This document shows positions 42,496 to 62,572 of a DNA stretch of 64,000 nucleotides, piece by piece. Where the stretch lies: contig CBDCOD010000024.1 in assembly GCA_965219665.1 (NCBI GenBank), forward strand, positions 209,633-273,632, read 5' to 3'. How positions within the stretch are numbered: position 1 is the first letter of the stretch; each line of letters starts with the position of its first letter. The translations under genes and the position numbers were made by a program. A model generated the notes under the pieces. It worked only from the letters and a program-made list of their open reading frames with translations, was not told the DNA's origin and searched no databases. This stretch comes from Gammaproteobacteria bacterium. GTDB taxonomy: Bacteria; Pseudomonadota; Gammaproteobacteria; CAKMZV01.

Positions 42496-42732
42496 AATCA
42501 ACAAAAAGTACCGTAAGGGTTACGGTTGCACAATCTACCAAACCACACAAAGGTAAGGGAGTAAAACAAACAGAAAAACAAAAATCTAAAGCCCTTATGC
42601 AGAAGATGTTGGTGCTCTTAATTCCTAAGTACAGCACCAAAAAAATGCAAGAAGAAAGTGGACCTCTTGTTGTTAATAAACCGTTTCTATTTAAGGTGCG
42701 TTAGCATACCTCTTCTCAAACAACGAAATGCA

Positions 42733-42879: not shown

Positions 42880-42881
42880 TT

Positions 42882-43073
42882 GTGACAGTTACCGCTGCGG
42901 TAGCACAAGCTGCCAGCAGTGGTGGCGGTGGTGGCGGTGGCGACAGCAGCGGCGGCGGTGGCGGGGGTGGCTGTAGCTTACAGTCTGAATCAGGCGCAAT
43001 AGACTGGACGCTATGGTTGCTTGCTCTATTGAGTTTAGCTGCACTGCGTGGCTATCGCCGCAGGGTATCTTAG
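42882..43073 (+). other. orphan 3' cassette encoding only the C-terminal sorting-signal tail of the NHL/cadherin protein family
   Basis: 63 codons, MTVTAAVAQAASSGGGGGGGDSSGGGGGGGCSLQSESGAIDWTLWLLALLSLAALRGYRRRVS*. The last 40 residues are identical to the tails of array copies 1-3. It is followed by the same 210-bp spacer and has no upstream gene body. Confidence 0.5.
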
Positions 43074-43174
43074 ATGAAAGGGCAGAAATGCCGTTTTATG
43101 TGACACAATTGCCATTCATGCTCAAAAGCAGCCTGAATGGATGCAATGTTTGCTGCGACACGTTTTCCTAACTG

Positions 43175-43215
43175 TTCGCAGCGAATAGTATCGTATGGTT
43201 GTGTTACAATCCCCT
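43175..43215 (+). promoter_or_regulatory. putative sigma-70 extended -10 promoter (TGtTACAAT) repeated in each array spacer
   Basis: TGTTACAAT at 43202-43210, about 74 nt upstream of the copy-1 ATG. The same element is conserved at 48027-48035, 52814-52822 and 57636-57644 ahead of copies 2-4. The -35 element is weak. Confidence 0.3.
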
Positions 43216-43283
43216 TAATATATATATTTATAGAACAACGAATCCATTCATTTCATTCATATCAATAATCACACAGAACTATT

Positions 43284-46200
43284 ATGCATACGAACAATAC
43301 ACATAGCAATACACATAGCAGTACATTTAACAATACACTGTATTCCATCCAAAAACGGGTAGTTTTCTTGCTCTGCATAGTATCGGCATTGGTGTCGGCA
43401 TCGCTGTGGTCAATGACAGCAAGTGCAGCTGCGCCAGTTGCTTTAAGCCATATTTTGTCTGTACAAACCTACGCAGGGGGTGGGAATGGCGATGACAGCA
43501 CCTCCGATGGCGCCAGCACCAAAACCGCGCGGTTTAGTGGAGTTAGTGGGCTTAGAGTAGCACCGGATGGGCGCCTCTTTGTCGCGGACAGTGAGCGCTT
43601 ACGCGTGGTGAGCGCGGATGGCAGCACGGTATCCACCTACGCTGGTGGCGGCAGCGTGGATGTAGATAGCGCCAGCACCGCCAATATTCGTTTTCGCAGT
43701 CTCCAAGACGTAGCCATTCACCCCGATGGACGCGTGTTTGTTTTAGATGGAGGCTTCTCCTCTGGGAATCGCGTATATGTTATTAACCCAACTGGCAGCA
43801 CCGCCTCTGTTTATGCGGGCGGGGGACCAATTGGTGGCTTTGCTGGCAGTTTTGCAGATGGTGCCAGTACTACCACTGCGCGCTTTGACCGACCTTTGGG
43901 GATGGCGCTTCGCTCTGATGGACGGCTTTTCATTGCCGATACAGCCAACCATCGCATTCGCGTCATCAGCGCGGATGGCGCCACCGTTTCTACCTATGCA
44001 GGCAATGGCAATCCAGGATTGCTTGATGGCGATGCGGATGCGGCTGAGTTTAATGGCCCTGTCAGCCTGGCATTTGCTACCGATGGGCGCCTCTTTGTCG
44101 GCGATGGCAACAACCGCCGCATTCGGGTGATTAGTGCCGATGGCAATACGGTTTCCACCTACGCCGGTCGCGGTGCCACTGGCGAAACAGCATTAGGTTC
44201 ACCATTCCCGCCCGCTGATAGCATTGATTTTTTTGATGTTGCCTATATTGCTATTACCAACGATGGGCGCATTCTGGTCAGCGATGATGGCTCTTCTAAT
44301 ATTCGGGTTATCAGCGCGGATGGCAGCCGTGTTTCTGTGTATGCAGGCGTTAATGTTGCCGCCTCTGACGATATAAGACCAAGCTTTCCCTCTAGCCCCT
44401 TAAATGAAGGTCTTCCTGCTGCAGAGGCGGGTTTTAGAAACCCTAGGGGCATCGCTATTGACGCGACTGGGCGGGTATTTGTCGCCAATCGCGATTTTAA
44501 CTTAGTGAGCGTTATTGCCCCCAGTTTGGCAGTGGCAGATATCCCCCCTGCGCAATTAAGCGCTGCACAGCAAGTACGCGGAGCAAGCGTCTTCAGCGCT
44601 GGCGTGGTGCAATCCCTATTTAGCGATGCGGATGGGAGCACCTTAAGCTACAGCTTGGTCGAAACCAGTTCGGCGACGGCTGTATCCTTTGCCATTGATA
44701 GCGTCAGTGGCGCTATCACCTACCTTCAGCCCACAGAGGCGCTGGCTAATACGCAAACACTGGTGATTGCCGTCAGTGATGAGCAAGGCACAGCTACTTC
44801 CCGTCTGACGGTTATTTCTGAACCTTTGAGCAACTATCCGCCCCAGTTTGGTTTATCCACCAGTGCCCTCACGCGCGCAGAAGGGTTTGCAGACCCCATA
44901 ACCATTACCATCAATGACCCAGATGATGGGGATACGGACAGTATAGAGCAGGCGATTACATACAGCCTACGCATAGACCCTAATGACTTATTGGCGCCTT
45001 TTGCAACATTTGCGATTGACCCACAATCAGGCACAATCACCATTACCAGCATCAGCGGCGTAGGCGCGTTTGGCAATATAACCGTTCGGGTTATTGCTGA
45101 TGATGGCAGTAACAGCCATAGTGAGTCCGAACAAAGCTTTACCCTCACTGTAACCCAAGTGAATAACACCCCGCCTGTGGTAGCTCCAAGCCTGCGCACT
45201 GTGCGCACCTATGCAGGCAGCGGCGGTAACGATTTTGCAGATGGTAGCGCCCTGACAGCACAATTCAACACTCCAAACGGTATTGCTCGGGCAGCCGATG
45301 GACGCATCTTTGTTGCAGATACTTTCAACCATCGTATTCGCGTCATTAGTGCTGATGGTGCGACTGTTTCCACTTATGCAGGTGATGGCGTTGCGGCCTT
45401 TGCAGATGGCAGCACCAGCACAGCACGCTTTTCCCAACCTCAAGGCATTGCCGTGGCAGCCGATGGCCGCCTCTTTGTTGCAGATGAGTTCAATAACCGT
45501 ATTCGCGTCATTAGTGCCGATGGTGCAACTGTTTCCACTTATGCAGGTGATGGCGAAGCGGCCTTTGTAGATGGCAGCACCACCACGGCACGCTTTAGTT
45601 TTCCACGCGGTATTGCCGTGGCAGCCGATGGGCGCGTCTTTGTTGCAGATACTTTCAATAACCGTATTCGCGTCATTAGTGCCGATGGTGCTACCGTCTC
45701 TACTTATGCAGGCATTGGTGGCTTTGGCTTCGCCAATGGCAGCACCAGCACGGCACAATTTAGTTTACCATTCGGCGTTGCCGTGGCAGCCGATGGGCGC
45801 GTCTTTGTTGCAGATGCTGGCAATCAGCGCATTCGCGTCATTAGTGCCGATGGTGCGACTGTTTCCACTTATGCAGGTGATGGCGTTGAGAACTTTGCAG
45901 ATGGCAGCACCACCACCGCTCGCTTTGAAGAGCCAACCGATCTTGTAGTTGCCTCCGATGGTCGCGTCTTTGTTGCTGACACAAATAACAATCGGATTCG
46001 CGTGATTAGTGCCGATGGTGCCTCTGTCTCTACCTATGCAGGTAGTGGTGCAGCTGCCCAAACCAATGAGCCTCAAAAATCACAAACCGCTCTTGATATA
46101 GATTTAAGAGAACCGCGAAGAATGATTCTTGCGCCGGATGGACGCCTCTTTTTCACTGACTCAGGTAACCATCGTATTCGCGTGATTGAAGTCATTTCCT

Positions 46201-47894
46201 CAACTTCTGAAAACTTTGGCTCTGTTACCTTAGGTGCTGAATTTCAAGGGGCTGGAACGCGCGTTATTGGCGCACAAAACCTATTTTTTGATGCAGAAGC
46301 TAATGACTTAACCTTTAGCATTCTCTCTGGTAATGAGGACGGCTTATTTGCCATCGATGCAGCCAGTGGCAGGGTTACGCTGGCAGGCAGTTTAACCGAT
46401 AGACAAACAGGGATCAACACGCTGGTTATCCAGGCACAAGATCTTGCTGGCAGCGCCACCGTAACCCTTACCATCGTAGTGGAAGAGGTGAACGATCCTC
46501 CCACGTTCGCCCTGTCTACCAGCACATTGGAATTAGATGAAGATTTCGGCACTAATACCGATATTGTGGTAGTGAATCCCGATGATGGGGACGCTGCGAT
46601 TGAGCAAATACTGACTTATAGCGTGAGCACCAACAATGTTGGCTTTACCACACTGACTATCAATGCACAATCAGGGACACTTACCTTGACCAGTATAGCG
46701 GATGCTTTTGGTGAGGCAACTCTTACCATAACGGTGACTGATTCTTCTGCTACCAACAATGAGGCAACCCAAGTCCTTAGATTACGAGTACTCTCTGTGA
46801 ATGACCCGCCTGCCTTTTCCCTCTCTACGACCACACTGAGGCTCACTGAGGACTTTGCTCAAGCAATAACTGTATCGGTGGTGAACCCAAATGATGTTGA
46901 TGGTGATGGTGATGGCATGGAGCAAACTTTAACCTATAGCATATCACCAGTTAGTTTAGAGGTGGTTGGTATAAGCTTTGATGCCAATTCAGGTCAAGTA
47001 ATTCTCAATAGCGTTGCCGATGCCAATAGCATTAACCCGATTCTGTTTGAAATAACTGCGAATGATGGTGGCGCGGTCAATAATCTATTCTCGCAGTCAT
47101 TTACCCTTGAGATTGAGCCTGTGAATGACCCAGGGAGGAATGACCCGCCTAATGTTGTGCTGTCAACTGCTGTGCTCACGCTGGATGAAGATTTTGGCAG
47201 TGCTTCTATAACTGTGGTGAGAAGCGATGACGGGGATGACACCAATCAACCTTTGACTTATAGTATAAGCACCACTAATATCGGTTTTGCAATGATTTCT
47301 ATTGATAGCAACTCAGGCGCTATAACCCTGAGTAGTGTCGATAACCAATTTGGGCAAGCCACTTTGTTTGTGACGGTGGATGACTCTGCTCCTGAGGATA
47401 ATCTTTCAATCATACAGGTTGTTGTTAGGGCACGTGCTGTGAACGATGTGCCAACTTTTACCTTATCACGAACGGCGTTGACGCTGGATGAGGATTTTGG
47501 AACCAATACGGATATTAGCGTGGTGAGTCCAAATGATGGCGACAATGGCGATCAAGTGATTACTTATAGTATTAATCCTACTAATACCGAATTTGCTACT
47601 TTAGCAATTGATGCGCAAACAGGGGAGGTTACTATAACCAGTGTCGCTAATGGATTTGGGAGTGCAGTCATTACAGTGATAGCAGAAGATGATGGTGGCG
47701 GCGATACCAACCAGTCAACCCAAACCTTTATGCTGACTGTGGTTGATAGTGTGTCAGAAGCTGCCAGCAGTGGTGGCGGAGGTGGTGGAGGCTGTAGCTT
47801 ACAGTCTGAATCAGGCGCAATAGACTGGACGCTATGGTTGCTTGCTCTATTGAGTTTAGCTGCACTGCGTGGCTATCGCCGCAGGGTATCTTAG
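43284..47894 (+). CDS. giant secreted repeat protein, copy 1: signal peptide, NHL beta-propeller, cadherin/Ig-like domains, second NHL propeller, ~5 cadherin-like domains, C-terminal GlyGly-CTERM/MYXO-CTERM-like sorting tail
   Basis: 1536 aa. Twelve NHL-type blades (e.g. ...ARF..P.G.A..ADGRLFVADT.NHRIRVISADGATVSTYAG.G...). Repeated ~100-aa modules are bounded by VNDPP(A/T)F as in cadherin-like/RTX adhesin repeats. The tail is SSGGGGGGGCSLQSESGAIDWTLWLLALLSLAALRGYRRRVS. Confidence 0.85.
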   Translation: MHTNNTHSNTHSSTFNNTLYSIQKRVVFLLCIVSALVSASLWSMTASAAAPVALSHILSVQTYAGGGNGDDSTSDGASTKTARFSGVSGLRVAPDGRLFVADSERLRVVSADGSTVSTYAGGGSVDVDSASTANIRFRSLQDVAIHPDGRVFVLDGGFSSGNRVYVINPTGSTASVYAGGGPIGGFAGSFADGASTTTARFDRPLGMALRSDGRLFIADTANHRIRVISADGATVSTYAGNGNPGLLDGDADAAEFNGPVSLAFATDGRLFVGDGNNRRIRVISADGNTVSTYAGRGATGETALGSPFPPADSIDFFDVAYIAITNDGRILVSDDGSSNIRVISADGSRVSVYAGVNVAASDDIRPSFPSSPLNEGLPAAEAGFRNPRGIAIDATGRVFVANRDFNLVSVIAPSLAVADIPPAQLSAAQQVRGASVFSAGVVQSLFSDADGSTLSYSLVETSSATAVSFAIDSVSGAITYLQPTEALANTQTLVIAVSDEQGTATSRLTVISEPLSNYPPQFGLSTSALTRAEGFADPITITINDPDDGDTDSIEQAITYSLRIDPNDLLAPFATFAIDPQSGTITITSISGVGAFGNITVRVIADDGSNSHSESEQSFTLTVTQVNNTPPVVAPSLRTVRTYAGSGGNDFADGSALTAQFNTPNGIARAADGRIFVADTFNHRIRVISADGATVSTYAGDGVAAFADGSTSTARFSQPQGIAVAADGRLFVADEFNNRIRVISADGATVSTYAGDGEAAFVDGSTTTARFSFPRGIAVAADGRVFVADTFNNRIRVISADGATVSTYAGIGGFGFANGSTSTAQFSLPFGVAVAADGRVFVADAGNQRIRVISADGATVSTYAGDGVENFADGSTTTARFEEPTDLVVASDGRVFVADTNNNRIRVISADGASVSTYAGSGAAAQTNEPQKSQTALDIDLREPRRMILAPDGRLFFTDSGNHRIRVIEVISSTSENFGSVTLGAEFQGAGTRVIGAQNLFFDAEANDLTFSILSGNEDGLFAIDAASGRVTLAGSLTDRQTGINTLVIQAQDLAGSATVTLTIVVEEVNDPPTFALSTSTLELDEDFGTNTDIVVVNPDDGDAAIEQILTYSVSTNNVGFTTLTINAQSGTLTLTSIADAFGEATLTITVTDSSATNNEATQVLRLRVLSVNDPPAFSLSTTTLRLTEDFAQAITVSVVNPNDVDGDGDGMEQTLTYSISPVSLEVVGISFDANSGQVILNSVADANSINPILFEITANDGGAVNNLFSQSFTLEIEPVNDPGRNDPPNVVLSTAVLTLDEDFGSASITVVRSDDGDDTNQPLTYSISTTNIGFAMISIDSNSGAITLSSVDNQFGQATLFVTVDDSAPEDNLSIIQVVVRARAVNDVPTFTLSRTALTLDEDFGTNTDISVVSPNDGDNGDQVITYSINPTNTEFATLAIDAQTGEVTITSVANGFGSAVITVIAEDDGGGDTNQSTQTFMLTVVDSVSEAASSGGGGGGGCSLQSESGAIDWTLWLLALLSLAALRGYRRRVS

Positions 47895-48103
47895 ATGAAA
47901 AAGGCAGAAATGCCGTTTTATGTGACACAATTGCCATTCATGCTCAAAAGCGCCTGAATGGATGGCTGCAATGTTTGCTGCGACACGTTTTCCTAACTGT
48001 TCGCAGCCAATAGTATCGTATGGTTGTGTTACAATTCTCTTAATATATATATTTATAGAACAACGAATCCATTCATTCATATCAATAATCACACAGAACT
48101 ATT

Positions 48104-51100
48104 ATGCATAAGACCAATACACATAGCAATACACTGTATTCCATCCAAAAACGCTTAGTTTTCTTGCTCTGCATAGTATCGGCATTGGTGTCGGCATCGC
48201 TGTGGTCAATGACAGCAAGTGCAGCTGCGCCAGTTGCTTTAAGCCATATTTTGTCTGTACAAACCTACGCAGGGGGTGGGAATGGCCCAGCCAACACCTC
48301 CGATGGCAACAGCACCAAAACCGCGCGGTTTGATATACCCACTGGGCTTAGAGTAGCACCGGATGGGCGCCTTTTTGTCACGGACAGTGAGCGCTTACGC
48401 GTGGTGAGCGCGGATGGCAGCACGGTATCCACCTACGCTGGTGGCGGCATCGTGGATGTAGTAGATAGCGCCAGCACCGCCAATATTCGTTTTCGCAGAC
48501 TCCGAGACGTAGCCATTCACCCCGATGGCCGCGTGTTTGTTTTAGATGGAGGCTTCTCCTCTGGGCATCGCGTATATGTTATTGACCCAACTGGCAGCAC
48601 CGCCTCTGTCTATGCGGGCGGAGGACCAATTGGTAACTTTGCTGGCAGTTTTGCAGATGGTGGCAGCACTACCACTGCGCGCTTTAACCAACCTTTGGGG
48701 ATGGCGCTTCGCTCTGATGGACGGCTTTTCATTGCCGATACAGCCAACCATCGCATTCGCGTCATCAGCGCGGATGGCGCCACCGTTTCTACCTATGCAG
48801 GCAATGGCAATCCAGGATTGGTTGATGGCGATGCGGATGCGGCTGAGTTTAATGGCCCTGTCAGCCTGGCATTTGCTACCGATGGGCGCCTCTTTGTCGG
48901 CGATGGCAACAACCGCCGCATTCGGGTGATTAGTGCCGATGGCAATACGGTTTCCACCTACGCCGGTCGCGGCGCCACTGGCGAAACAGACCTAGAGTCA
49001 CAATTCCCGCCCGCTGATAGCATTGATTTTTTTGATGTTGCCTATATTGCTATTACCACCGATGGGCGCATTATAGTCAGCGATGATGGTTCTCATAATA
49101 TTCGGGTCATCAGCGCGGATGGCAGCCGTGTTTCTGTGTATGCAGGCGCTGATGGAGTCAGCTCTGGCAACATACGAACAAGCTTTCCCTTTAACCCCTT
49201 AAATGAAGGTCCTGCTGCAGAGGCAGGTTTTAGAACCCCTAGGGGCATCGCTATTGATGCGGCTGGGCGGGTATTTGTCGCCAATCGCGATTTTAGCTTA
49301 GTGAGCGTTATTGCCCCCAGTTTGGCAGTGGCAGATATCCTCCCTGCGCAATTAAGCGCTGCACAGCAAGTACGCGGAGCAAGCCTCTTCAGCGCTGGCG
49401 TGGTGCAATCCCTATTTAGCGATGCGGATGGGAGCACCTTAAGCTACAGCTTGGTCGAAACCAGTTCGGCGACGGCTATATCCTTTGCCATTGATAGTGT
49501 CAGTGGCGCTATCACCTACCTTCAGCCCACAGAGGCGCTGGCTAATACGCAAACACTGGTGATTGCCGCCAGTGATGAGCAAGGCACAGCTACTTCCCGT
49601 CTGACGGTTATTTCTGAACCTTTGAGCAACTACCCGCCCCAGTTTGGTTTATCCACCAGTGCCCTCACGCGCGCAGAAGGGTTTGCAGACCCCATAACCA
49701 TTACCATCAATGACCCAGATGATGGGGATACGGACGGTATAGAGCAGCCGATTACATACAGCCTGCGCATAGCCCCTAATGACTTATTGGCGCCTTTTGC
49801 AACATTTGCGATTGACCCACAATCAGGCACAATCACCATTACCAGTATCAGCGGCGCAGGCGCGTTTGGCAATATAACCGTTCGGGTTATTGCTGATGAT
49901 GGCAGTAACAGCCATAGTGAGTCCGAACATAGCTTTGCCCTCACTGTAACCCAAGTGAATAACAGCCCGCCTGTGGTAGCTCCAAGCCTGCGCATTGTGC
50001 GCACCTATGCAGGCAGCGGCGTTAGCGATTTTGCAGATGGTAGCGCCCTGACAGCACAATTCAACGCTCCACGCGGTATTGCCCGTGCAGCCGATGGCCG
50101 CCTCTTTGTTGCAGATGCTTCCAATGACCGCATCCGAGTAATCAGTGCCGATGGTGCGACTGTTTCCACTTATGCAGGTGATGGCGTTGAGAACTTTGCA
50201 GATGGCAGCACCAGCACCGCACGCTTTCGTTCTCCAAGCGGCGTTGCTCTGGCAGCCGATGGGCGCGTCTTTGTTGCAGATACGGATAACAATCGGATTC
50301 GCGTGATTAGTGCCGATGGTGCGACTGTTTCCACTTATGCAGGTGATGGCGTTGAGGGCTTTGCAGATGGCAGCACCAGCACGGTACGCTTTCGTTTTCC
50401 ACGTGGCGTTGCCTTGACAGCCGATGGGCGCCTCTTTGTTGCAGATACTTTCAATGACCGTATTCGCGTCATTAGTGCCGATGGTGCGACTGTTTCCACT
50501 TATGCAGGTGGTGGCGTTCCGGGCTTTGCAGATGGCAGCACCACCACCGCACGCTTTAATACGCCACGCGGCGTTGCCTTGGCAGCCGATGGGCGCGTCT
50601 TTGTTGCAGATGCTGGCAATCACCGCATTCGCGTCATTAGTGCCGATGGTGCGACTGTTTCCACTTATGCAGGTGATGGCGTTGAGAGCTTTGCAGATGG
50701 CAGCACGACCACCGCTCGCTTTGATGACCCAACCGATTTTGTAGTTGCCTCCGATGGTCGGCTGTTTGTTGCTGATACGGGTAACAGTCGGATTCGCGTG
50801 ATTAGTGCCGATGGTGCCTCTGTCTCTACCTATGCAGGTAGTGGTGCAGTTGCCCAAGCTAATGAGCATCAAGAATTACAAGCCGCTGTTGATATAGATA
50901 TAGGCGCTCCGCGAAGAATGACTCTTGCGCCGGATGGACGCCTCTTTTTCACTGACTCAGATAGTAATCGTATTCGCGTGATTGAAGACGTTTCCTCAAC
51001 TTCTGAAAACTTTGGCTCTGTTACCTTAGGCGCTGGATTTCAAGGGGCTGGAACGCGCGTTATTAGCGCACAAAACCTATTTTTTGATGCAGAAGGTAAT

Positions 51101-52681
51101 GACTTAACCTTCAGCATTCTCTCTGGTAATGAAGACGGCTTATTTGCCATCGATGCAGCCAGTGGCAGGGTTACGCTGGCAGGCAGTTTAACCGATAGAC
51201 AAACAGGGATCAACACGCTGGTTATCCAGGCACAAGATCTTGCTGGCAGCGCCACCGTAACCCTTACCATCGTAGTGGAAGAGGTGAACCAAGCTCCCAC
51301 GTTCGCCCTGTCTTCCAGCACTTTGGAATTAGATGAAGATTTCGGCACTAATACCGATATTGTGGTAGTGAATTCCGATGATGGGGATGCCGCGATTGAG
51401 CAAATACTGACTTATAGCGTGAGCACCAACAATGTCGGCTTTACCACACTGACTATCAATGCACAATCAGGGGCACTTACCTTGACCAGTATAGCGGATG
51501 CTTTTGGTGAGGCAACCCTTACCATAACGGTGAGTGATTCTTCTACTACCAACAGTGAGGCAACCCAAACCCTTAGATTACGAGTACTCCCCGTGAATGA
51601 CCCGCCTGCCTTTTCCCTCTCTACGACCACACTGAGGCTCACTGAGGACTTTGCTCAAGCAATAACTGTATCGGTGGTGAACCCAAATGATGGCGATGAT
51701 GATGGCATGGAGCAAACTTTAACCTATAGCATATCACCGGTTAGTTTAGAGGTGGTTGGTATAAGCTTTGATGCCAATTCAGGTCAAGTAATTCTCAATA
51801 GCGTTGCCGATGCCAATAGCATTAACCCGATTCTGTTTGAAATAACTGCGAATGATGGTGGCGCGGTCAATAATCTATTCTCGCAGTCATTTACCCTTGA
51901 GATTCAGCCTGTGGATGACCCGGGGAATGACCCGCCTAATGTTGTGCTGTCAACTGCTGTGCTCACGCTGGATGAAGATTTTGGCAGTGCTTCTATAACT
52001 GTGGTGAGTAGCGATGACGGGGATGGCACCAATCAACCTTTGACTTATAGTATAAGCACCACTAATATCGGTTTTGCAACGATTTCTATTGATAGCAACT
52101 CAGGCGCTATAACCCTGAGTAGTGTCGATAACCAATTTGGGCAAGCCACTTTGTTTGTGACGGTGGATGACTCTGCTCCTGAGGATAATCTTTCAATCAT
52201 ACAGGTTGTTGTTGAGGCACGTTCTGTGAACGATGTGCCAACTTTTACCTTATCACGAACGGCGCTGACGCTGGATGAGAATTTTGGAAGCAATACGGAT
52301 ATTAGCGTGGTGAGTCCAAATGATGGCGACAATGGCGATCAAGTGATTACTTATAGTATTAATCCTACTAATACTGGATTTGCTACTTTAGCAATTGATG
52401 CGCAAACAGGGGAGGTTACTATAACCAGTGTCGCTAATGGATTTGGGAGTGCAGTCATTACAGTGATAGCAGAAGATGATGGTGGCGGCGATACCAACCA
52501 GTCAACCCAAACCTTTATGCTGACTGTGGTTGATAGTGTGTCAGAAGCTGCCAGCAGTGGTGGCGGAGGTGGTGGAGGCTGTAGCTTACAGTCTGAATCA
52601 GGCGCAATAGACTGGACGCTATGGTTGCTTGCTCTATTGAGTTTAGCTGCACTGCGTGGCTATCGCCGCAGGGTATCTTAG
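48104..52681 (+). CDS. giant secreted NHL-propeller/cadherin-like repeat protein with C-terminal sorting tail, copy 2
   Basis: 1525 aa, collinear with copy 1 and estimated by eye at about 90-95% identity. It has a shorter N-terminal repeat stretch and scattered substitutions, mostly in propeller blades. Confidence 0.85.
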   Translation: MHKTNTHSNTLYSIQKRLVFLLCIVSALVSASLWSMTASAAAPVALSHILSVQTYAGGGNGPANTSDGNSTKTARFDIPTGLRVAPDGRLFVTDSERLRVVSADGSTVSTYAGGGIVDVVDSASTANIRFRRLRDVAIHPDGRVFVLDGGFSSGHRVYVIDPTGSTASVYAGGGPIGNFAGSFADGGSTTTARFNQPLGMALRSDGRLFIADTANHRIRVISADGATVSTYAGNGNPGLVDGDADAAEFNGPVSLAFATDGRLFVGDGNNRRIRVISADGNTVSTYAGRGATGETDLESQFPPADSIDFFDVAYIAITTDGRIIVSDDGSHNIRVISADGSRVSVYAGADGVSSGNIRTSFPFNPLNEGPAAEAGFRTPRGIAIDAAGRVFVANRDFSLVSVIAPSLAVADILPAQLSAAQQVRGASLFSAGVVQSLFSDADGSTLSYSLVETSSATAISFAIDSVSGAITYLQPTEALANTQTLVIAASDEQGTATSRLTVISEPLSNYPPQFGLSTSALTRAEGFADPITITINDPDDGDTDGIEQPITYSLRIAPNDLLAPFATFAIDPQSGTITITSISGAGAFGNITVRVIADDGSNSHSESEHSFALTVTQVNNSPPVVAPSLRIVRTYAGSGVSDFADGSALTAQFNAPRGIARAADGRLFVADASNDRIRVISADGATVSTYAGDGVENFADGSTSTARFRSPSGVALAADGRVFVADTDNNRIRVISADGATVSTYAGDGVEGFADGSTSTVRFRFPRGVALTADGRLFVADTFNDRIRVISADGATVSTYAGGGVPGFADGSTTTARFNTPRGVALAADGRVFVADAGNHRIRVISADGATVSTYAGDGVESFADGSTTTARFDDPTDFVVASDGRLFVADTGNSRIRVISADGASVSTYAGSGAVAQANEHQELQAAVDIDIGAPRRMTLAPDGRLFFTDSDSNRIRVIEDVSSTSENFGSVTLGAGFQGAGTRVISAQNLFFDAEGNDLTFSILSGNEDGLFAIDAASGRVTLAGSLTDRQTGINTLVIQAQDLAGSATVTLTIVVEEVNQAPTFALSSSTLELDEDFGTNTDIVVVNSDDGDAAIEQILTYSVSTNNVGFTTLTINAQSGALTLTSIADAFGEATLTITVSDSSTTNSEATQTLRLRVLPVNDPPAFSLSTTTLRLTEDFAQAITVSVVNPNDGDDDGMEQTLTYSISPVSLEVVGISFDANSGQVILNSVADANSINPILFEITANDGGAVNNLFSQSFTLEIQPVDDPGNDPPNVVLSTAVLTLDEDFGSASITVVSSDDGDGTNQPLTYSISTTNIGFATISIDSNSGAITLSSVDNQFGQATLFVTVDDSAPEDNLSIIQVVVEARSVNDVPTFTLSRTALTLDENFGSNTDISVVSPNDGDNGDQVITYSINPTNTGFATLAIDAQTGEVTITSVANGFGSAVITVIAEDDGGGDTNQSTQTFMLTVVDSVSEAASSGGGGGGGCSLQSESGAIDWTLWLLALLSLAALRGYRRRVS

Positions 52682-52887
52682 ATGAAAAAGGCAGAAATGC
52701 CGTTTTATGTGACACAATTGCCATTCATGCTCAAAAGCGCCTGAATGGATGGCTGCAATGTTTGCTGCGACACGTTTTCCTAACTGTTCGCAGCCAATAG
52801 TATCGTATGGTTGTGTTACAATCCTCTTAATTATATATATTTATAGAACAACGAATCCATTCATATCAATAATCACACAGGACTATT

Positions 52888-55800
52888 ATGCATACGATCA
52901 ATACACATAGCAGTACACATAGCAATACATTTAACAATACACTGTATTCCATCCAAAAACGCTTAGTTTTCTTGTTCTGCATAGTATCGGCATTGGTGTC
53001 GGCATCGCTGTGGTCAATGACAGCAAGTGCAGCTGCGCCAGTTGCTTTAAGCCATATTTTGTCTGTACACACCTACGCAGGGGGTGGGACTGGCCCTGAC
53101 AGCACCTCCGATGGCAACAGCACCCAAACCGCGCGTTTTGATCAACCCAATGGGCTTAGAGTAGCACCGGATGGGCGCCTCTTTATCACGGACCGTGGGC
53201 GCTTACGCGTGGTGAGCGCGGATGGCAGCACGGTATCCACCTACGCTGGTGGCGGTAGTGTGGATGTAGATAGCGCCAGCACCTCCAATATTCGTTTTCG
53301 CGAACTCCAAGACGTAGCTATTCACCCCGATGGCCGCGTGTTTGTTTTAGATGGAGGGTCGCGCTCTGGGCATCGCGTGTATGTTATTGACCCAACTGGC
53401 AGCACCGCCTCTGTCTATGCGGGCGGGGGACCAATTGGTAACTTTGCTGGCAGTTTTGCAGATGGTGCCAGCACTACCACTGCGCGCTTTAACCAACCTT
53501 TGGGGATGGTGCTTCACTCTGATGGACGGCTTTTCATTGCCGACACAGACAACCATCGCATTCGCGTCATCAGCGCGGATGGCGCCACCGTTTCTACCTA
53601 TGCAGGCAATGGCAATCCAGGATTGGCTGATGGCGATGCGGATGCGGCTGAGTTTAACGGTCCTGTCAGCCTGGCATTTGCTACCGATGGGCGCCTCTTT
53701 GTCGGCGATGGCAACAACCGCCGCATTCGGGTGATTAGTGCCGATGGCAATACGGTTTCCACCTACGCCGGTCGCGGTGCCACTGGCGAAACAGCATTAG
53801 GTTTACCATTCCCGCCCGCTGATAGCATCGATTTTTTTGATGTTGCCTATATTGCCATTACCACCGATGGGCGCATTCTAGTCAGCGATGATGGCTCTCA
53901 TAATATTCGGGTCATCAGCGCAAATGGCAGCCGTATTTCTGTGTATGCAGGCGCTAATGGAGTCACCCCTGGCAACATAAGAGGCTTTGCCCCTAACCCC
54001 TTAAATGAAGGTCTTCCTGCTGTAGACGCAGGTTTTGGAAGCCCTAGGGGCATCGCTATTGACGCGACTAGGCGGGTATTTGTCGCCAATCGCAATTTTA
54101 ACTTAGTGAGCGTTATTGCCCCCAGTTTGGCAGTGGCAGATATCCCCCCTGCGCAATTAAGCGCAGCACAGCAAGTACGCGGATCAAGCGTCTTCAGCGC
54201 TGGCGTGGTGCAATCTCTATTTAGCGATGCGGATGGGAGCACTTTAAGCTACAGCTTGGTCGAAACCAGTTCGGCGACGGCTGTATCCTTTGCCATTGAT
54301 AGCGTCAGTGGCGCTATCACCTACCTTCAGCCCACAGAGGCGCTAGCTAATACGCAAACACTGGTGATTGCCGCCAGTGATGAGCAAGGCACAGCTACTT
54401 CCCGTCTGACGGTTATTTCTGAACCTTTGAGCAACTATCCGCCCCAGTTTGGTTTATCCACCAGTGCCCTCACGCGCGCAGAAGGGTTTGCAGACCCCAT
54501 AACCATTACCATCAATGACCCAGATGATGGGGATACGGACGGTATAGAGCAGCCGATCACATACAGCCTGCGCATAGACCCTAATGACTTATTGGCGCCT
54601 TTTGCAACATTTGCGATTGACCCACAATCAGGCACAATCACCATTACCAGTATCAGCGGCGCAGGCGCGTTTGGCAATATAACCGTTCGGGTTATTGCTG
54701 ATGATGGCAGTAACAGCCGTAGTGAGTCCGAACAAAGCTTTACCCTCACTGTAACCCAAGTGAATAACAGCCCGCCTGTGGTAGCTCCAAGCCTGCGCAT
54801 TGTGCGCACCTATGCAGGCAGCGGCGTTAACGATTTTGCAGATGGTAGCGCCCTGACAGCACAATTCAACGCTCCAAGCGGTATTGCTCGGGCAGCCGAT
54901 GGACGGCTTTTCATTGCCGATACAGACAACCATCGTATTCGCGTCATTAGTGCCGATGGTGCGACTGTTTCCACTTATGCAGGTGATGGCGTTGAGGACT
55001 TTGCAGATGGCAGCACCAGCACGGCACGCTTTAGTTCTCCACGTGGCGTTGCCTTGGCAGCCGATGGCCGCCTCTTTGTTGCAGATGAGTTCAATCACCG
55101 TATTCGCGTCATTAGTGCCGATGGTGCGACTGTTTCCACTTATGCAGGTGATGACGCTGCGGCTTTTGCAGATGGCAGCACCAGCACGGCACGCTTTAGT
55201 TCTCCACGTGGCGTTGCCTTGGCAGCCGATGGACGCCTCTTTGTTGCAGATACTTTCAATGACCGTATTCGCGTCATTAGTGCCGATGGTGCGACTGTTT
55301 CTACTTATGCAGGCAGTGGTTTTGGCTTCGCCAATGGCAGCACCAGCACCGCCCGCTTTAATACGCCACGCGGCGTTGCCGTGGCAGCCGATGGGCGCGT
55401 CTTTGTTGCAGATGCTGGCAATCAGCGCATTCGCGTCATTAGTGCCGATGGTGCGACTGTTTCCACTTATGCAGGTGATGGCGTTCAGAGCTTTGCAGAT
55501 GGCAGCACGACCACCGCTCGGTTTGATAGCCCAACCGATTTTGTAGTTACCTCCGATGGTCGCGTCTTTGTTACTGATACGGGTAATCATCGTATTCGCG
55601 TGATTAGTGCCGATGGTGCCTCTGTCTCTACCTATGCAGGTAGTGGTGCAGTTGCCCAAACTAATGCGCCTCAACTAGAATCACAAACCGCTCTTGATAT
55701 AGATTTAAGATTTCCGCAAAGAATGACTCTTGCGCCGGATGGACGCCTCTTTTTCACTGAGACAAATATTCATCGTATTCGCGTGATTGAAGTCGTTTCC

Positions 55801-57504
55801 TCAGCTTCTGAAAACTTTGGCTCTGTTACCTTAGGCGCTGAATTTCAAGGGGCTGGAACGCACGTTATTGGCGCACAAAACCTATTTTTTGATGCAGAAG
55901 GTAATGACTTAACCTTCAGCATTCTCTCTGGTAATGAGGACGGCTTTTTTGCCATCGATGCAGCCAGTGGCAGGGTTACGCTGGCAGGCAGTTTAACCGA
56001 TAGACAAACAGGGATCAACACGCTGGTTATCCAGGCACAAGATCTTGCTGGCAGCGCCACCGTAACCCTTACCATCGTAGTGGAAGAGGTGAACGATCCT
56101 CCCACGTTCGCCCTGTCTACCAGCACATTGGAATTAGATGAAGATTTCGGCACTAATACCGATATTGTGGTAGTGAATCCCGATGATGGGGACGCTGCGA
56201 TTGAGCAAATACTGACTTATAGCGTGAGCACCAACAATGTTGGCTTTACCACACTGACTATCAATGCACAATCAGGGACACTTACCTTGACCAGTATAGC
56301 GGATGCTTTTGGTGAGGCAACTCTTACCATAACGGTGACTGATTCTTCTGCTACCAACAATGAGGCAACCCAAGTCCTTAGATTACGAGTACTCTCTGTG
56401 AATGACCCGCCTGCCTTTTCCCTCTCTACGACCACACTGAGGCTCACTGAGGACTTTGCTCAAGCAATAACTGTATCGGTGGTGAACCCAAATGATGTTG
56501 ATGGTGATGGTGATGGCATGGAGCAAACTTTAACCTATAGCATATCACCAGTTAGTTTAGAGGTGGTTGGTATAAGCTTTGATGCCAATTCAGGTCAAGT
56601 AATTCTCAATAGCGTTGCCGATGCCAATAGCATTAACCCGATTCTGTTTGAAATAACTGCGAATGATGGTGGCGCGGTCAATAATCTATTCTCGCAGTCA
56701 TTTACCCTTGAGATTGAGCCTGTGGATGACCCAGGGAGGAATGACCCGCCTAATGTTGTGCTGTCAACTGCTGTGCTCACGCTGGATGAAGATTTTGGCA
56801 GTGCTTCTATAACTGTGGTGAGAAGCGATGACGGGGATGGCACCAATCAACCTTTGACTTATAGTATAAGCACCACTAATATCGGTTTTGCAATGATTTC
56901 TATTGATAGCAACTCAGGCGCTATAACCCTGAGTAGTGTCGATAACCAATTTGGGCAAGCCACTTTGTTTGTGACGGTGGATGACTCTGCTCCTGAGGAT
57001 AATCTTTCAATCATACAGGTTGTTGTTGAGGCACGTGCTGTGAACGATGTGCCAACTTTTACCTTATCACGAACGGCGTTGACGCTGGATGAGGATTTTG
57101 GAACCAATACGGATATTAGCGTGGTGAGTCCAAATGATGGCGACAATGGCGATCAAGTGATTACTTATAGTATTAATCCTACTAATACCGAATTTGCTAC
57201 TTTAGCAATTGATGCGCAAACAGGGGAGGTTACTATAACCAGTGTCGCTAATGGATTTGGGAGTGCAGTCATTACAGTGATAGCAGAAGATGATGGTGGC
57301 GGCGATACCAACCAGTCAACCCAAACCTTTATGCTGACTGTGCTGGATGTGGTTGATAGTGTGTCACAGCCTGCCAGCAGTGGTGGCGGGGGTGGTGGCG
57401 GCTGTAGCTTACAGTCTGAATCAGGCGCAATAGACTGGACGCTATGGTTGCTTGCTCTATTGAGTTTAGCTGCACTGCGTGGCTATCGCCGCAGGGTATC
57501 TTAG
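52888..57504 (+). CDS. giant secreted NHL-propeller/cadherin-like repeat protein with C-terminal sorting tail, copy 3
   Basis: 1538 aa with the same architecture and tail as copies 1-2. Confidence 0.85.
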   Translation: MHTINTHSSTHSNTFNNTLYSIQKRLVFLFCIVSALVSASLWSMTASAAAPVALSHILSVHTYAGGGTGPDSTSDGNSTQTARFDQPNGLRVAPDGRLFITDRGRLRVVSADGSTVSTYAGGGSVDVDSASTSNIRFRELQDVAIHPDGRVFVLDGGSRSGHRVYVIDPTGSTASVYAGGGPIGNFAGSFADGASTTTARFNQPLGMVLHSDGRLFIADTDNHRIRVISADGATVSTYAGNGNPGLADGDADAAEFNGPVSLAFATDGRLFVGDGNNRRIRVISADGNTVSTYAGRGATGETALGLPFPPADSIDFFDVAYIAITTDGRILVSDDGSHNIRVISANGSRISVYAGANGVTPGNIRGFAPNPLNEGLPAVDAGFGSPRGIAIDATRRVFVANRNFNLVSVIAPSLAVADIPPAQLSAAQQVRGSSVFSAGVVQSLFSDADGSTLSYSLVETSSATAVSFAIDSVSGAITYLQPTEALANTQTLVIAASDEQGTATSRLTVISEPLSNYPPQFGLSTSALTRAEGFADPITITINDPDDGDTDGIEQPITYSLRIDPNDLLAPFATFAIDPQSGTITITSISGAGAFGNITVRVIADDGSNSRSESEQSFTLTVTQVNNSPPVVAPSLRIVRTYAGSGVNDFADGSALTAQFNAPSGIARAADGRLFIADTDNHRIRVISADGATVSTYAGDGVEDFADGSTSTARFSSPRGVALAADGRLFVADEFNHRIRVISADGATVSTYAGDDAAAFADGSTSTARFSSPRGVALAADGRLFVADTFNDRIRVISADGATVSTYAGSGFGFANGSTSTARFNTPRGVAVAADGRVFVADAGNQRIRVISADGATVSTYAGDGVQSFADGSTTTARFDSPTDFVVTSDGRVFVTDTGNHRIRVISADGASVSTYAGSGAVAQTNAPQLESQTALDIDLRFPQRMTLAPDGRLFFTETNIHRIRVIEVVSSASENFGSVTLGAEFQGAGTHVIGAQNLFFDAEGNDLTFSILSGNEDGFFAIDAASGRVTLAGSLTDRQTGINTLVIQAQDLAGSATVTLTIVVEEVNDPPTFALSTSTLELDEDFGTNTDIVVVNPDDGDAAIEQILTYSVSTNNVGFTTLTINAQSGTLTLTSIADAFGEATLTITVTDSSATNNEATQVLRLRVLSVNDPPAFSLSTTTLRLTEDFAQAITVSVVNPNDVDGDGDGMEQTLTYSISPVSLEVVGISFDANSGQVILNSVADANSINPILFEITANDGGAVNNLFSQSFTLEIEPVDDPGRNDPPNVVLSTAVLTLDEDFGSASITVVRSDDGDGTNQPLTYSISTTNIGFAMISIDSNSGAITLSSVDNQFGQATLFVTVDDSAPEDNLSIIQVVVEARAVNDVPTFTLSRTALTLDEDFGTNTDISVVSPNDGDNGDQVITYSINPTNTEFATLAIDAQTGEVTITSVANGFGSAVITVIAEDDGGGDTNQSTQTFMLTVLDVVDSVSQPASSGGGGGGGCSLQSESGAIDWTLWLLALLSLAALRGYRRRVS

Positions 57505-57715
57505 ATGAAAGGCAGAAATGCTGTTTTATGTGACACAATTGCCATTCATGCTCAAAAGCAGCCTGAATGGATGGCTGCAATGTTTGCTGCGACACGTTTT
57601 CCTAACTGTTCGCAGCGAATAGTATCGTATAGTTGTGTTACAATCCTCTTAATATATACACATCTATATAACAACGCATTCATTCATTCATATCAATAAT
57701 CACAGAGGACTATTA

Positions 57716-60674
57716 TGCATACGATCAATATACACATAGCAGTACATTTAACAATACACTGTATTCCATCCAAAAACGCTTAGTTTTGTTGTTCTGCATC
57801 GTATCGGCATTGGTGTCGGCATCGCTGTGGTCAATGACAGCAAGTGCAGCTGCGCCAGTGGCTTTAAGCCATAGTGCGTCCGAACATAGCTTTGCCCTCA
57901 CTGTAACCCAAGTGAATAACAGCCCGCCTGTGGTAGCTCCAAGCCTGCGCATTGTGCGCACCTATGCAGGCAGCGGCGTTAACGATTTTGCAGATGGTAG
58001 CGCCCTGACAGCACAATTCAACGCTCCAAGCGGTATTGCTCGGGCAGCCGATGGACGCCTCTTTGTTGCAGATACTTTCAATCACCGCATCCGAGTAATC
58101 AGTGCCGATGGTGCGACGGTTTCCACTTATGCAGGTGATGGCGTTAACGGGCTTTGCAGATGGCAGCACCAGCACGGCACGCTTTAGTGATCAACCTCAA
58201 GGCGTTGCCTTGGCAGCCGATGGACGCCTCTTTGTTGCAGATGAGAGCCAATCACCGTATTCGCGTGATTAGTGCCGATGGTGCGACTGTTTCCACTTAT
58301 GCAGGTAATGGCGTTCGCGGCTTTTGCAGATGGCAGCACCAGCACGGCACGCTTTCGTGGGTCCAGTCGGCGTTGCCGTGGCAGCCGATGGACGCCTCTT
58401 TGTTGCAGATACTTTCAATAGACCGTATTCGCGTCATTAGTGCCGATGGTGCTACCGTCTCTACTTATGCAGGCACTGGTTTTTTTGGCTTTGCCAATGG
58501 CGAGCGCCAGCACCGCTCGCTTTGGTTCTGCCTCAACTGGCGTTGCCGTGGCAGCCGATGGACGCGTCTTTGTTGCAGATACGGGTCAATAACGTCGGAT
58601 TCGCGTCATTAGTGCCGATGGTGCGACGGTTTCTACTTATGCAGGTGATGGCTTTGCGGGCATTTGCAGATGGCAGCACCACCACCGCACGCTTTGACGA
58701 ACCTCGAGGCGGTATGGCCGTGGCAGCCGATGGTCGCGTCTTTGTTGCTGATGAGGTCAATCAATCGGATTCGCGTGATTAGTGCCGATGGTGCCTTTGT
58801 CTCTACCTATGCAGGTAGTGGTACAGCTACCCAAACCAATGAGCCTCAAGCATTACAAGCCGCTCTTGATATAGATTTAAGCGCAACCGCGAAGAATGAC
58901 GCTTGCGCCGGATGGACGCCTCTTTTTCACTGACTCAGGTAACCATCGTATTCGCGTGATTGAAGTCATTTCCTCAACTTCTGAAAACTTTGGCTCTGTT
59001 AGCTTAGGCGCTGGACTTCAAGGGGCTGGAACGCACGTTATTGGCGCACAAAACCTATTTTTTGATGCAGAAGGTAGTGACTTAAGCTTCAGCATTCTCT
59101 CTGGTAATGAGGACGGCTTATTTGCCATCGATGCAGCCAGTGGCAGGGTTACGCTGGCAGGCAGTTTAACCGATACACGAACAGGGATCAACACGCTGGT
59201 TATCCAGGCAGAAGATCTTGCTGGCAGCGCCACCGTAACCCTTACCATCGTAGTGGAAGAGGTGAACGATCCTCCCACGTTCGCCCTGTCTTCCAGCACT
59301 TTGGAATTAGATGAAGATTTCGGCACTAATACCGATATTGTGGTAGTGAATCCCGATGATGGGGATGCCGCGATTGAGCAAATACTGACTTATAGCGTGA
59401 GCACCAACAATGTCGGCTTTACCACTCTGACTATCAATGCACAATCAGGGACACTTACCCTGACCAGTATAGCGGATGCTTTTGGTGAGGCAACTCTTAC
59501 CATAACGGTGACTGATTCTTCTGCTACCAACAATGAGGCAACCCAAACCCTTAGATTACGAGTACTCCCCGTGAATGACCCGCCTGCCTTTTCCCTCTCT
59601 ACGACCACCCTGAGGCTCGATGAGGACTTTGCTCAAGCAATAACTGTATCGGTGGTGAACCCAAATGATGGTGATGATGGCATGGAGCAAACTTTAACCT
59701 ATAGCATATCACCGGTTAGTTTAGGGGTGGTTGGTATAAGCTTTGATGCCAATTCAGGTCAAGTAATTCTCAATAGCGTTGCCGATGAAAATAGCATTAA
59801 CCCGATTCTGTTTGAAATAACTGCGAATGATGGTGGCGCGGTCAATAATCTATTCTCGCAGTCATTTACCCTTGAGATTGAGCCTGTGGATGACCCGGGG
59901 AATGACCCGCCTAATGTTGTGCTGTCAACTGCTGTGCTCACGCTGGATGAAGATTTTGGCAGTGCTTCTATAACTGTGGTGAGTAGCGATGACGGGGATG
60001 GCACCAATCAACCTTTGACTTATAGTATAAGCACCACTAATATCGGTTTTGCAACGATTTCTATTGATAGCAACTCAGGCGCTATAACCCTGAGTAGTGT
60101 CGATAACCAATTTGGGCAAGCCGCTTTGTTTGTGACGGTGGATGACTCTGCTCCTGAGGATAATCTTTCAATCATACAGGTTGTTGTTAGGGCACGTGCT
60201 GTGAACGATGTGCCAACTTTTACCTTATCACGAACGGCGCTGACACTGAATGAGGATTTTGGAAGCAATACGGATATTAGCGTGGTGAGTCCAAATGATG
60301 GCGACAATGGCGATCAAGTGATTACTTATCGTATTAATCCTACTAATACCGAATTTGCTACTTTAGCAATTGATGCGCAAACAGGGGAGGTTACTATAAC
60401 CAGTGTCGCTAATGGATTTGGGAGTGCAGTCATTACAGTGATAGCAGAAGATGATGGTGGCGGCGATACCAACCAGTCAACCCAAACCTTTATGCTGACT
60501 GTGGTTGATAGTGTGTCAGAAGCTGCCAGCAGTGGTGGCGGGGGTGGTGGCTGTAGCTTACAGTCCGCAACGAACCACCCTATAGACACTACACTCTGGT
60601 GGCTCCTGTTATTAAGCCTTGCGCTACTAACAGTGCGCGCTTATACAACGCGCCGCCCTCAAAAAAACCTATAG
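57716..60674 (+). pseudogene. degraded copy 4 of the NHL/cadherin repeat-protein gene (internal ~1.7-kb deletion, multiple frameshifts in second propeller, variant tail)
   Basis: Same upstream spacer and ATG context. The N-terminal repeat has a 2-nt indel. The signal peptide joins directly to the residue-~610 region (SASEHSFALTVTQVNNSPPVV). Reading frames break repeatedly between 58100 and 58900 (ORFs 57786..58187, 58154..58612, 58522..58782, 58664..58933). The ORF is intact from 58896 to the tail SSGGGGGGCSLQSATNHPIDTTLWWLLLLSLALLTVRAYTTRRPQKNL*. Confidence 0.75.
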
Positions 60675-60697
60675 CATAATTGAACATCAAATCCATA

Positions 60698-60790
60698 TCT
60701 GATGAAAAGATAGAGGAACTGTTGTTCAAACTTGGTAATGAAGGCTGTGGTGTCTATTGGAGAATAGTTGAAATGCTCTATCAAAACAAC
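60698..60790 (+). repeat. right copy of ~93-bp direct repeat (DUF4373 gene segment) flanking the array
   Basis: Encodes SDEKIEELLFKLGNEGCGVYWRIVEMLYQNN, versus SDEKIEKLLFELGNEGYGIYWRIIEMLYQNN in the left copy. Confidence 0.7.
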
Positions 60791-60827
60791 AATTCCTTAC
60801 GAACGTAATACGAACCTAATACTATAA

Positions 60828-61843: not shown

Positions 61844-61916
61844 ATAATCAACTGCTGCGGCAGGCAGGAAGCCTACGGGCGCAGTTTTGCCGGTGTTAGT
61901 GGGTGATTGATTGTCG

Positions 61917-62550: not shown

Positions 62551-62572
62551 TAATTTGGCAGCCCCCGCAACA

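Follow-up and report, generated by a model that had tools for sequence, protein, structure and literature searches.

A gene-converting tandem array encoding predicted surface proteins with NHL propellers, cadherin-like domains and a JDVT-like C-terminal signal in a gammaproteobacterium

Described systems that resemble the locus reported here include Cys-type C-terminal sorting pathways and teneurin-like proteins. In the MYXO-CTERM pathway, experiments have established that the myxosortase MrtX cleaves the tail in a Cys-dependent manner and is required for surface display (PMC11980579). JDVT-CTERM tails carry a single invariant Cys with a near-invariant Asp-Pro nine residues on; there is typically one client per proteome, and the gene for the CPBP-family protein MrtJ is adjacent in 16 of 17 pairs (bioRxiv 10.1101/2023.06.07.544157). 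Bacterial teneurin-like proteins (TLPs) are defined by an FN-plug, an NHL domain and a YD-shell superfold, together with a C-terminal toxin and an immunity gene (PMC13018210). Here we analyzed a 64,000-nucleotide stretch of DNA from a Gammaproteobacteria bacterium (assembly GCA_965219665.1, contig CBDCOD010000024.1, positions 209,633 to 273,632 of the forward strand; hereafter the window), which holds a tandem array of long paralogous genes for proteins with NHL propellers, cadherin-like domains and a Cys-type tail. The array probably belongs to a large, modular family whose copies undergo gene conversion and whose products are surface proteins anchored at the C-terminus, with variable NHL heads on cadherin-like stalks; these proteins would most plausibly serve as adhesins or receptors.

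The list of open reading frames (ORFs) and their translations revealed a head-to-tail cluster of three intact ORFs and one pseudogene on the + strand. Copy 1 (43284-47894, 1536 aa) encodes a leader, NHL propeller 1, two immunoglobulin (Ig)-like domains, NHL propeller 2, five cadherin-like domains and a Cys-type C-terminal sorting signal, and the same architecture is found in copy 2 (48104-52681, 1525 aa) and copy 3 (52888-57504, 1538 aa). Copy 4 (57715-60674) is the pseudogene, with broken ORFs at 57786-60674. Repeat analysis gave a unit spacing of 4787-4814 bp and an internal periodicity of 165 bp, which corresponds to the propeller blades. Pairwise identities among the intact copies are 91-92% at the protein level and 94.5-95.5% at the DNA level, and the differences are gathered in the two propeller regions, the stalk being near-identical. 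The array is genuine and far beyond chance. A first-pass annotation of this DNA had reported three intact head-to-tail genes of these sizes, preceded by near-identical spacers of about 210 bp with the motif TGTTACAAT, and this is borne out by the ORFs and by alignment. The same annotation had counted four genes of about 4.6 kb and let the array start at 43074. The three intact copies agree with that count, whereas copy 4 belongs by its junction APVALSHSASEHSFALTVTQVNN to a class of about 975 aa with a single propeller, and a fifth remnant of the family lies just upstream of the proposed start, at 42882-43073.

Pfam assigned to all three intact copies the families NHL (PF01436; 202-204 bits against a cut-off of 20, E ~1e-61), TEN_NHL (PF25021; 137-146 bits against 27.1, E ~1e-40) and Cadherin (PF00028; 61-69 bits against 28.8, E ~1e-18). 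Sequence comparison with the PDB matched the propellers to a bacterial teneurin-like protein, SOQ1, TRIM71, Thin, NHLRC2 and PknD, with the entries 9pt5 and 9ifo at E ~5e-46, and the stalk, over several domains at a time, to protocadherins (E down to 1e-13), CELSR1 and cadherin-23. Two AlphaFold2 models, for which family alignments served as input, had a mean predicted local distance difference test score (pLDDT) of about 66 and values of 80-90 in the propellers. In the first model, residues 45-650 form a propeller of six blades that is closed by the N-terminal strand, with a poorly resolved beta-rich pair after it. In the second, residues 640-1536 give another propeller of six blades, then five beta-sandwich domains and, at the end, a helix; all blades of both propellers are four-stranded. 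In Foldseek, the target-normalised TM-scores of the propellers to the NHL domains of Thin, TRIM71 and TRIM2 and to Pizza6 were 0.78-0.89, the top match was 9ifo, and the stalk aligned with five-domain cadherin ectodomains at E 1e-20 to 1e-23. The stalk linkers read VNDPPTF, VNDPPAF and VNDVPTF, and DDGD-type Asp-rich loops are present. The cut-offs of two further NCBIfam models, ScyF (NF035926; 137-150 bits, cut-off 350) and ScyE of the ScyD-ScyE family (NF033206; 67-74 bits, cut-off 80), were not reached. At the N-terminus, an extended polar n-region, the residues KR and the hydrophobic core VFLLCIVSALVSASLW are followed by TASA and then AAP, which we read as a Sec signal peptide without a lipobox, with cleavage probably after TASA.

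The C-terminus, GGGGGGGCSLQSESGAIDWTLWLLALLSLAALRGYRRRVS, is composed of a Gly-rich linker, a single Cys, a hydrophobic helix and an Arg-rich cluster. With the NCBIfam model JDVT-CTERM (NF033191; cut-off 27), its score was 33.6-33.7 bits in the three intact copies and 31.9 bits in the pseudogene; with MYXO-CTERM (TIGR03901) it was 15.3-16.5 bits, which is under the cut-off of 20. The Cys is invariant in 63 tails across both tail variants of the family, and the terminal helix of the structure model coincides with the hydrophobic segment of the tail. Five such tails are present in the window alone and dozens in related assemblies. When the tail was searched with HMMER against 1.84 billion representatives at the 50%-cluster level, five clusters were returned, all of them NHL/cadherin proteins or fragments; at this level the tail is restricted to the array family and a sister subfamily. 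The tail motif was also sought in DNA: a scan of a viral collection gave no match and a metagenome scan gave two, of which the one inspected (in contig L025) was an unrelated chance match. By analogy with the described pathways, the tail may be regarded as a JDVT-like signal that is used by many clients and lacks two defining features of the known systems. Taken with Pfam, AlphaFold2 and Foldseek, the NCBIfam result means that the architecture given in the first-pass annotation was right in every element. The NHL, cadherin and CTERM sorting models it had expected all scored above their cut-offs, and its reading of a large, secreted, surface-anchored and adhesin-like family holds up on the domains, the sorting signal and the models.

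The history of the copies can be read from the distribution of their differences, which have a mean spacing of one per 16-19 nt. Copies 1 and 3 are identical across 777 nt (46347-47123), and copies 1 and 2 across their last 313 nt. The synonymous divergence (dS) of copies 1 and 3 ranges from 0.003 in the stalk to 0.13 in propeller 2, and the copy that is the odd one out switches in blocks along the gene. Because of the mosaic blocks and the long identical tracts, we conclude that gene conversion or recombination has taken place among the copies; the window copies are gene-conversion mosaics, as had been suggested for them earlier.

Among 12 paralogues of the same size class, the variable positions fall into three short segments of each 55-residue blade, namely after YAGxG, at F-xx-P-x-G just ahead of strand A, and at AD-xx-N-x-RIRV from strand B to strand C, while the AADGR and SADGAT loops are invariant. 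In the canonical propeller topology, the D-A and B-C loops are located on the top face. From the modeled strand positions and this topology, the three variable segments should share one (top) face of the propeller and the AADGR and SADGAT loops should lie on the other, an assignment that rests on the canonical topology and not on coordinates. The ratio of nonsynonymous to synonymous divergence (dN/dS, Nei-Gojobori) in propeller 2 was 1.22 in seven genes and 0.85 in the window copies for 65 top-face loop codons, a set that was partly picked by observed variability so that dN is inflated there, compared with 0.09-0.25 and 0.07-0.24, respectively, for mid-loop, bottom-loop and strand codons. This contrast indicates that the propeller scaffold is functional and constrained and that the loops change freely. 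The clustering of variation in the propellers had been attributed to diversifying selection. The clustering was seen, and the attribution can be kept only in part, as a loop ratio of about 0.85-1.2 is compatible with diversifying or with relaxed selection and is not proof of positive selection. A diversity-generating retroelement was considered and rejected, as the window is without a reverse transcriptase and the variable sites are spread across many loops in all blades.

The array is also rich in GC, at 0.51 compared with about 0.44 in the neighboring genes. The main part of this excess is found at codon position 2 (0.51 vs about 0.39); GC at codon position 3 (GC3) is 0.445 vs about 0.39, and the share of C-ending codons at fourfold sites is 0.335 vs 0.20. 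Since the excess is mainly at codon position 2, i.e., a matter of amino-acid composition (Gly/Ala/Asp/Arg/Thr-rich repeats), it constitutes weak evidence for a foreign origin. The high GC content reported in the first-pass annotation was found again; the horizontal acquisition that had been drawn from it has weak support at best, as the family is also shared with sister genomes of the same lineage.

The junction APVALSHSASEHSFALTVTQVNN of copy 4 is exactly that of intact paralogues of about 975 aa, one of which (P0043) is encoded on the same source contig as the window (the others being P0040 and P0066). On account of these paralogues, a fresh 1.66-kb deletion in a 1530-aa gene was rejected as the origin of copy 4, which we regard instead as a decayed member of a separate, single-propeller size class. 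Its leader has lost the frame through a 2-nt insertion in a repetitive stretch, and about 22 frame-breaking indels were counted in the gene. Most of these are single-base insertions confined to the blades, where at least 13 of them, rarely in homopolymers, are crowded into 0.75 kb (58146-58884). The stalk and tail ORF (58896-60674, 592 aa), on the other hand, is intact, without a frameshift and 98-99% identical to the other copies; its tail is of the alternative variant. Possibly, the stalk of copy 4 is repaired by conversion and the blades are not. The repetitive stretch is an imperfect 12-nt repeat, AATACACATAGC, which encodes NTHS and is found at the 5' end of each gene (43284-43340, 48104-48150, 52888-52945 and 57715-57760). 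Its copy number varies among the paralogues, and the 2-nt insertion of copy 4 falls within it.

Protein searches returned dozens of close relatives with 60-92% identity, all on metagenome-derived contigs in ENA/NCBI. From a scan of genome contigs, the only matches were distant NHL proteins of other phyla. Of 122 cluster representatives that were examined, 54 are complete proteins with the same leader and either of the two tail variants. They form length classes of about 970, 1080, 1170, 1530, 1800 and 2240 aa, which differ in the number and type of propeller and stalk domains, and many other members are truncated or frameshifted. A second tandem array, on contig L022, contains genes for 2247, 1164, 1086, 978 and 969 aa and adjoins a type I restriction system and a Fic gene. 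The GyrB of the window falls into a 90% cluster of only two sequences from three contigs. A divergent subfamily with the same tail type is found on a 1.56-Mb contig whose GyrB belongs to this cluster. The next GyrB relatives, at 72-75% identity, are on contigs of 1.9-2.1 Mb, one of which is apparently circular (about 2.06 Mb). The closest named GyrB homologues, from Methylomarinum and Legionellales MAGs, reached about 65% identity. The label 'free-living', which had been given to the organism, is therefore unsupported, the nearest relatives being circular contigs of this size in metagenomes. From these data we infer that a few small genomes each carry many members of a lineage-specific, modular multigene family, annotated only as hypothetical.

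The four spacers (43074-43283, 47895-48103, 52682-52887 and 57505-57714, all + strand) align nearly base for base and are about 210 bp each. Spacer 1 holds the terminator-like hairpin GGCAGAAATGCC with a U-tract and then the extended -10-like TGTTACAAT at 43202; in spacers 2, 3 and 4 this motif is found at 48027, 52814 and 57636. It fits an extended -10 element (TGnTAnAAT) and is located about 75 nt ahead of the ATG, and a small hairpin with a U-tract follows directly 3' of each stop codon (fold z = -2.1 in spacer 2). A generic promoter and terminator scan gave matches no commoner than in shuffled sequences and no canonical terminator in the spacers. As the entire spacer is conserved, the conservation is not specific to the motif. 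In the L022 array (16730-16790), the spacers are 44 bp long and lack the segment of about 165 bp that holds the motif; in the sequences inspected, tails ending in RRST accompany short spacers, and those ending in RRRVS accompany long ones. A promoter for each single gene is thus hypothetical. Small ORFs in the spacers were rejected as genes, their frames being broken by indels between the spacer copies, and Rfam gave no RNA family match in the window.

At the left boundary, a 5' fragment (48 codons) of a phage gene of the Lin1244_N/DUF4373 type (42733-42879, + strand; PF14297, E=2e-10) is followed by the fifth family remnant (42882-43073, + strand). What is left here of a gene of the class of about 2240 aa is its final 63 codons with the sorting tail; their translation, VTAAVAQAASSGGGG...CSLQSESGAIDWTLWLLALLSLAALRGYRRRVS, matches the tails of this class and the fragment P0243. 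At the right boundary, a 5'-truncated Lin1244_N fragment is present at 60680-60808 (+ strand; PF14297, E=1e-5). Local alignment revealed that a direct repeat of 93 bp, with 82 of 93 bases identical (42777-42870 and 60697-60790), flanks the whole array. The upstream Lin1244_N piece is cut at its 3' end and the downstream one at its 5' end, a layout that would be expected after the integration of a circle by a single crossover or after a segmental duplication. The array is directly followed by a prophage remnant, the degraded phage genes at 61532-63088 (- strand), in which a degraded fragment of a Mu F-like head morphogenesis gene (62169-62546, - strand; PF04233, E=7e-22) is accompanied by an ORF with weak MuF_C and AdfA matches. 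The head block of the array, about 1.3 kb (41973-43283), is made up of a stretch rich in AT, an ORF of 82 aa, the Lin1244_N fragment, the remnant of the fifth gene and the spacer. It recurs with 93% identity in contig L024 (8737-10000), upstream of a family member of 2251 aa, in surroundings that differ from those of the window, with genes for IS3 transposases, restriction-modification and an integrase. It seems that arrays move or duplicate along with their head block.

Upstream of the array lie core genes, among them glyA, nrdR, ribD, serB and gyrB as well as genes for tRNA synthetase and purine synthesis. A gene for an NYN-domain protein, a predicted RNase, is located between ribBA and smpB (33141-33776, + strand) and had no NCBIfam match. 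The zinc ABC substrate-binding gene aztC (4082-5118, - strand) is divided between two overlapping ORFs, 4082-4642 and 4582-5118, which match positions 93-277 and 1-93 of the AztC profile, respectively; the split reflects a frameshift in a pseudogene or else an error of sequencing. Within the propeller-2 coding DNA, antisense ORFs of up to 349 aa are found on the - strand (45027-45758, 49823-50872 and 54628-55674). They were rejected as genes, the one tested having no family match, and look like by-products of stop-poor repeat sequence.

How such proteins might work can be outlined from their parts and from the described sorting pathways. The product would be exported through its Sec-type leader, and the C-terminal helix and Arg cluster would first hold it in the inner membrane. 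The Cys that ends the Gly-rich linker would then be lipidated, by analogy with the MYXO-CTERM/JDVT-CTERM pathway, and a CPBP-family 'myxosortase-like' intramembrane protease would remove the helix, after which the protein would reach the outer surface with its C-terminus as the anchor. The five cadherin-like domains, linked by VNDPPxF and probably stiffened by Ca2+, would form a stalk and so hold the working ends, one or two NHL propellers of six blades each, at a distance from the cell. As the three loop segments of each blade vary between paralogues, the family could provide a repertoire of heads with different putative binding specificities. The near-identical leaders, tails and spacers would offer homology for unequal crossing-over, giving rise to arrays, size classes and remnants, and the same homology would feed gene conversion, yielding mosaic copies and homogenised stalks.

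A number of observations weigh against variable, C-terminally anchored adhesins or receptors of this kind. In the tail, the Asp-Pro of JDVT-CTERM is absent; an Asp is found at +10 or +11 and is followed by Trp in the main variant or Thr in the alternative one, never by Pro. Neither MrtJ (NF033192) nor another CPBP protease was found among the ORFs of at least 150 aa in the window, nor in the flanks of the arrays on L022 and L024, and no type II secretion system was found within the window. The Ig-like pair was modeled with low confidence (pLDDT 30-60). To these must be added the topology-based placement of the variable loops on one face, the selection of the loop codons and the fit of their dN/dS to relaxed selection, all described above.

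Other explanations were weighed on the same evidence. The propellers could be surface-displayed enzymes of the lactonase, lyase, arylesterase or phytase type and not binding modules. Pfam indeed reported SGL (PF08450, SMP-30/gluconolactonase/LRE-like) with 64-78 bits against a cut-off of 26.3, along with Phytase-like, Arylesterase and Mala_s_1-like, on propeller stretches. However, these matches overlap with those to NHL (about 202 bits) and TEN_NHL (about 145 bits), which score far higher and are of the same propeller superfamily, Vgb_lyase stayed below its cut-off, and the nearest solved structures are non-enzymatic NHL domains. Moreover, the loops around the would-be active-site face are the most variable ones, whereas a conserved catalytic site predicts the opposite, and we regard an enzymatic role as very unlikely. 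Still more improbable, in our opinion, is a mis-assembly of repeats that inflated one or two genes into four. Units of 4.8 kb that are about 95% identical, with identical tracts of up to 777 nt, are difficult for short reads, but every copy has about 250-310 differences of its own as well as its own indels and leader repeat number, and copy 4 is of another size class with another tail. In addition, three of the proteins are on record on one 279-kb contig, and similar arrays are present on independent related contigs, whose names, with what look like coverage values and circular/linear flags, suggest assembly from long reads.

Two further alternatives concern the origin and the use of the array. 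The fragments of phage-type Lin1244_N genes on both flanks, the degraded Mu F-like gene after the array, the recurrence of the head block beside IS3 transposases, restriction-modification genes and an integrase, and the elevated share of C-ending codons at fourfold sites would all suit recently acquired foreign DNA, such as phage or island cargo. Nevertheless, the GC excess lies for the most part at codon position 2, and the GC3 gap is only about 5 points; closely related assemblies hold dozens of paralogues, with a divergent subfamily of the same tail on the 1.56-Mb contig; and the tail DNA motif had no match in the viral collection. Relocation within the lineage accounts for the mobile-element remnants at both ends no less well than a foreign origin does. 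Movement within the genome, together with such remnants, is the likelier course; a recent import from another lineage we consider unlikely. The array could also be an antigenic-variation-type system, in which a few expressed loci are rewritten by conversion from a silent or broken reservoir such as copy 4. Conserved ends and spacers around variable cores, demonstrated conversion tracts, many truncated or frameshifted members, and a pseudogene whose stalk is 98-99% identical to those of the intact copies while its propeller region has at least 13 frameshifts are all in line with this idea. On the other hand, three adjoining intact copies with the same promoter-like spacer and with scaffolds under purifying selection fit simultaneous use, and no single expression site, invertible promoter or recombinase was seen next to the array. 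We think it quite unlikely that the array is used in this manner.

The adhesin or receptor family that we favor could be taken one step further, to a recombination-driven repertoire of receptors in which a hypervariable NHL scaffold is displayed through a dedicated Cys-type JDVT/MYXO-CTERM pathway with many clients and continually reshuffled among intact and broken copies. We put this forward tentatively and hold it to be rather doubtful; if it applies, several percent of the genome may be devoted to the family, the genomes of the nearest relatives being about 2 Mb. In function, such a repertoire would resemble the systems of antigen receptors or of antigenic variation. If the reading is right, a bacterium would use the NHL propeller, a fold familiar chiefly from teneurins and the TRIM-NHL proteins of eukaryotes, as a diversifiable binding platform with variation on one face. 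Outside Myxococcota, the JDVT signal has so far been described as a one-client, two-gene system. A JDVT-like Cys tail with dozens of paralogous clients in a gammaproteobacterium would be a new use of such a signal and would widen the scope of CPBP-type 'myxosortase' sorting. The proteins would also be candidate attachment factors for an uncultured, possibly host-associated lineage. With intact copies, a remnant and a pseudogene adjoining one another, the locus is a natural example of birth-and-death and gene-conversion evolution. No single part of it is new; it is the combination of known parts that is uncharacterised, and current understanding is not overturned.

The array can be compared most directly with the JDVT-CTERM/MrtJ system (bioRxiv 10.1101/2023.06.07.544157). 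Both have a tripartite signal, in which a single invariant Cys after a Gly-rich stretch is followed by a Leu-rich helix and an Arg cluster, both are found in Gammaproteobacteria, and the array tails score over the curated cut-off. They differ in that the array tails have Asp-Trp or Asp-Thr in place of Asp-Pro, that the array family comprises dozens of client paralogues and not typically one per proteome, and that an adjacent MrtJ gene is absent from the window, in contrast to the 16 of 17 adjacent pairs. In the number of clients, the array is closer to MYXO-CTERM proteins such as the MrtX-sorted TraA of Myxococcus xanthus (PMC11980579), where many clients also share one Cys-containing C-terminal signal. 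TraA, too, is a large surface protein with a variable recognition head on a stalk, and the route proposed for it, with Sec export, lipidation, CPBP cleavage and surface display, is the one suggested here. Unlike the MYXO-CTERM signals, the array tail has one Cys and not the frequent GCGC, it stays below the cut-off of the model, it comes from a different phylum, and the heads are NHL propellers and not the TraA variable domain.

Teneurins and the bacterial TLPs (PMC13018210; PDB 9ifo and 9pt5) are the best matches of the propellers in both sequence and fold. The likeness is confined to the NHL part, as the Pfam scan of the array genes listed no YD/Rhs, toxin or FN-plug family, and, unlike in TLPs, the array genes are followed not by an immunity gene but by a spacer and the next paralogue. 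Eukaryote-like proteins with cadherin, fibronectin-III or NHL domains, which are enriched in symbionts of sponges and other animals (e.g. PMC8163846), likewise include expanded sets of secreted cadherin-domain proteins, which are thought to mediate attachment, and likewise have restriction-modification genes and mobile elements nearby. Neither the architecture of two propellers, five cadherin-like domains and a Cys-CTERM nor tandem gene-converting arrays were described in the papers found. Finally, in contrast to the ectodomains of cadherins and protocadherins, the array proteins are bacterial and, judging from their sequence, would be anchored at the C-terminus via a sorting signal. They nevertheless share with these ectodomains five tandem beta-sandwich domains of about 100 aa, Asp-rich DDGD loops, and a VNDPPxF junction that resembles DxNDNxPxF.

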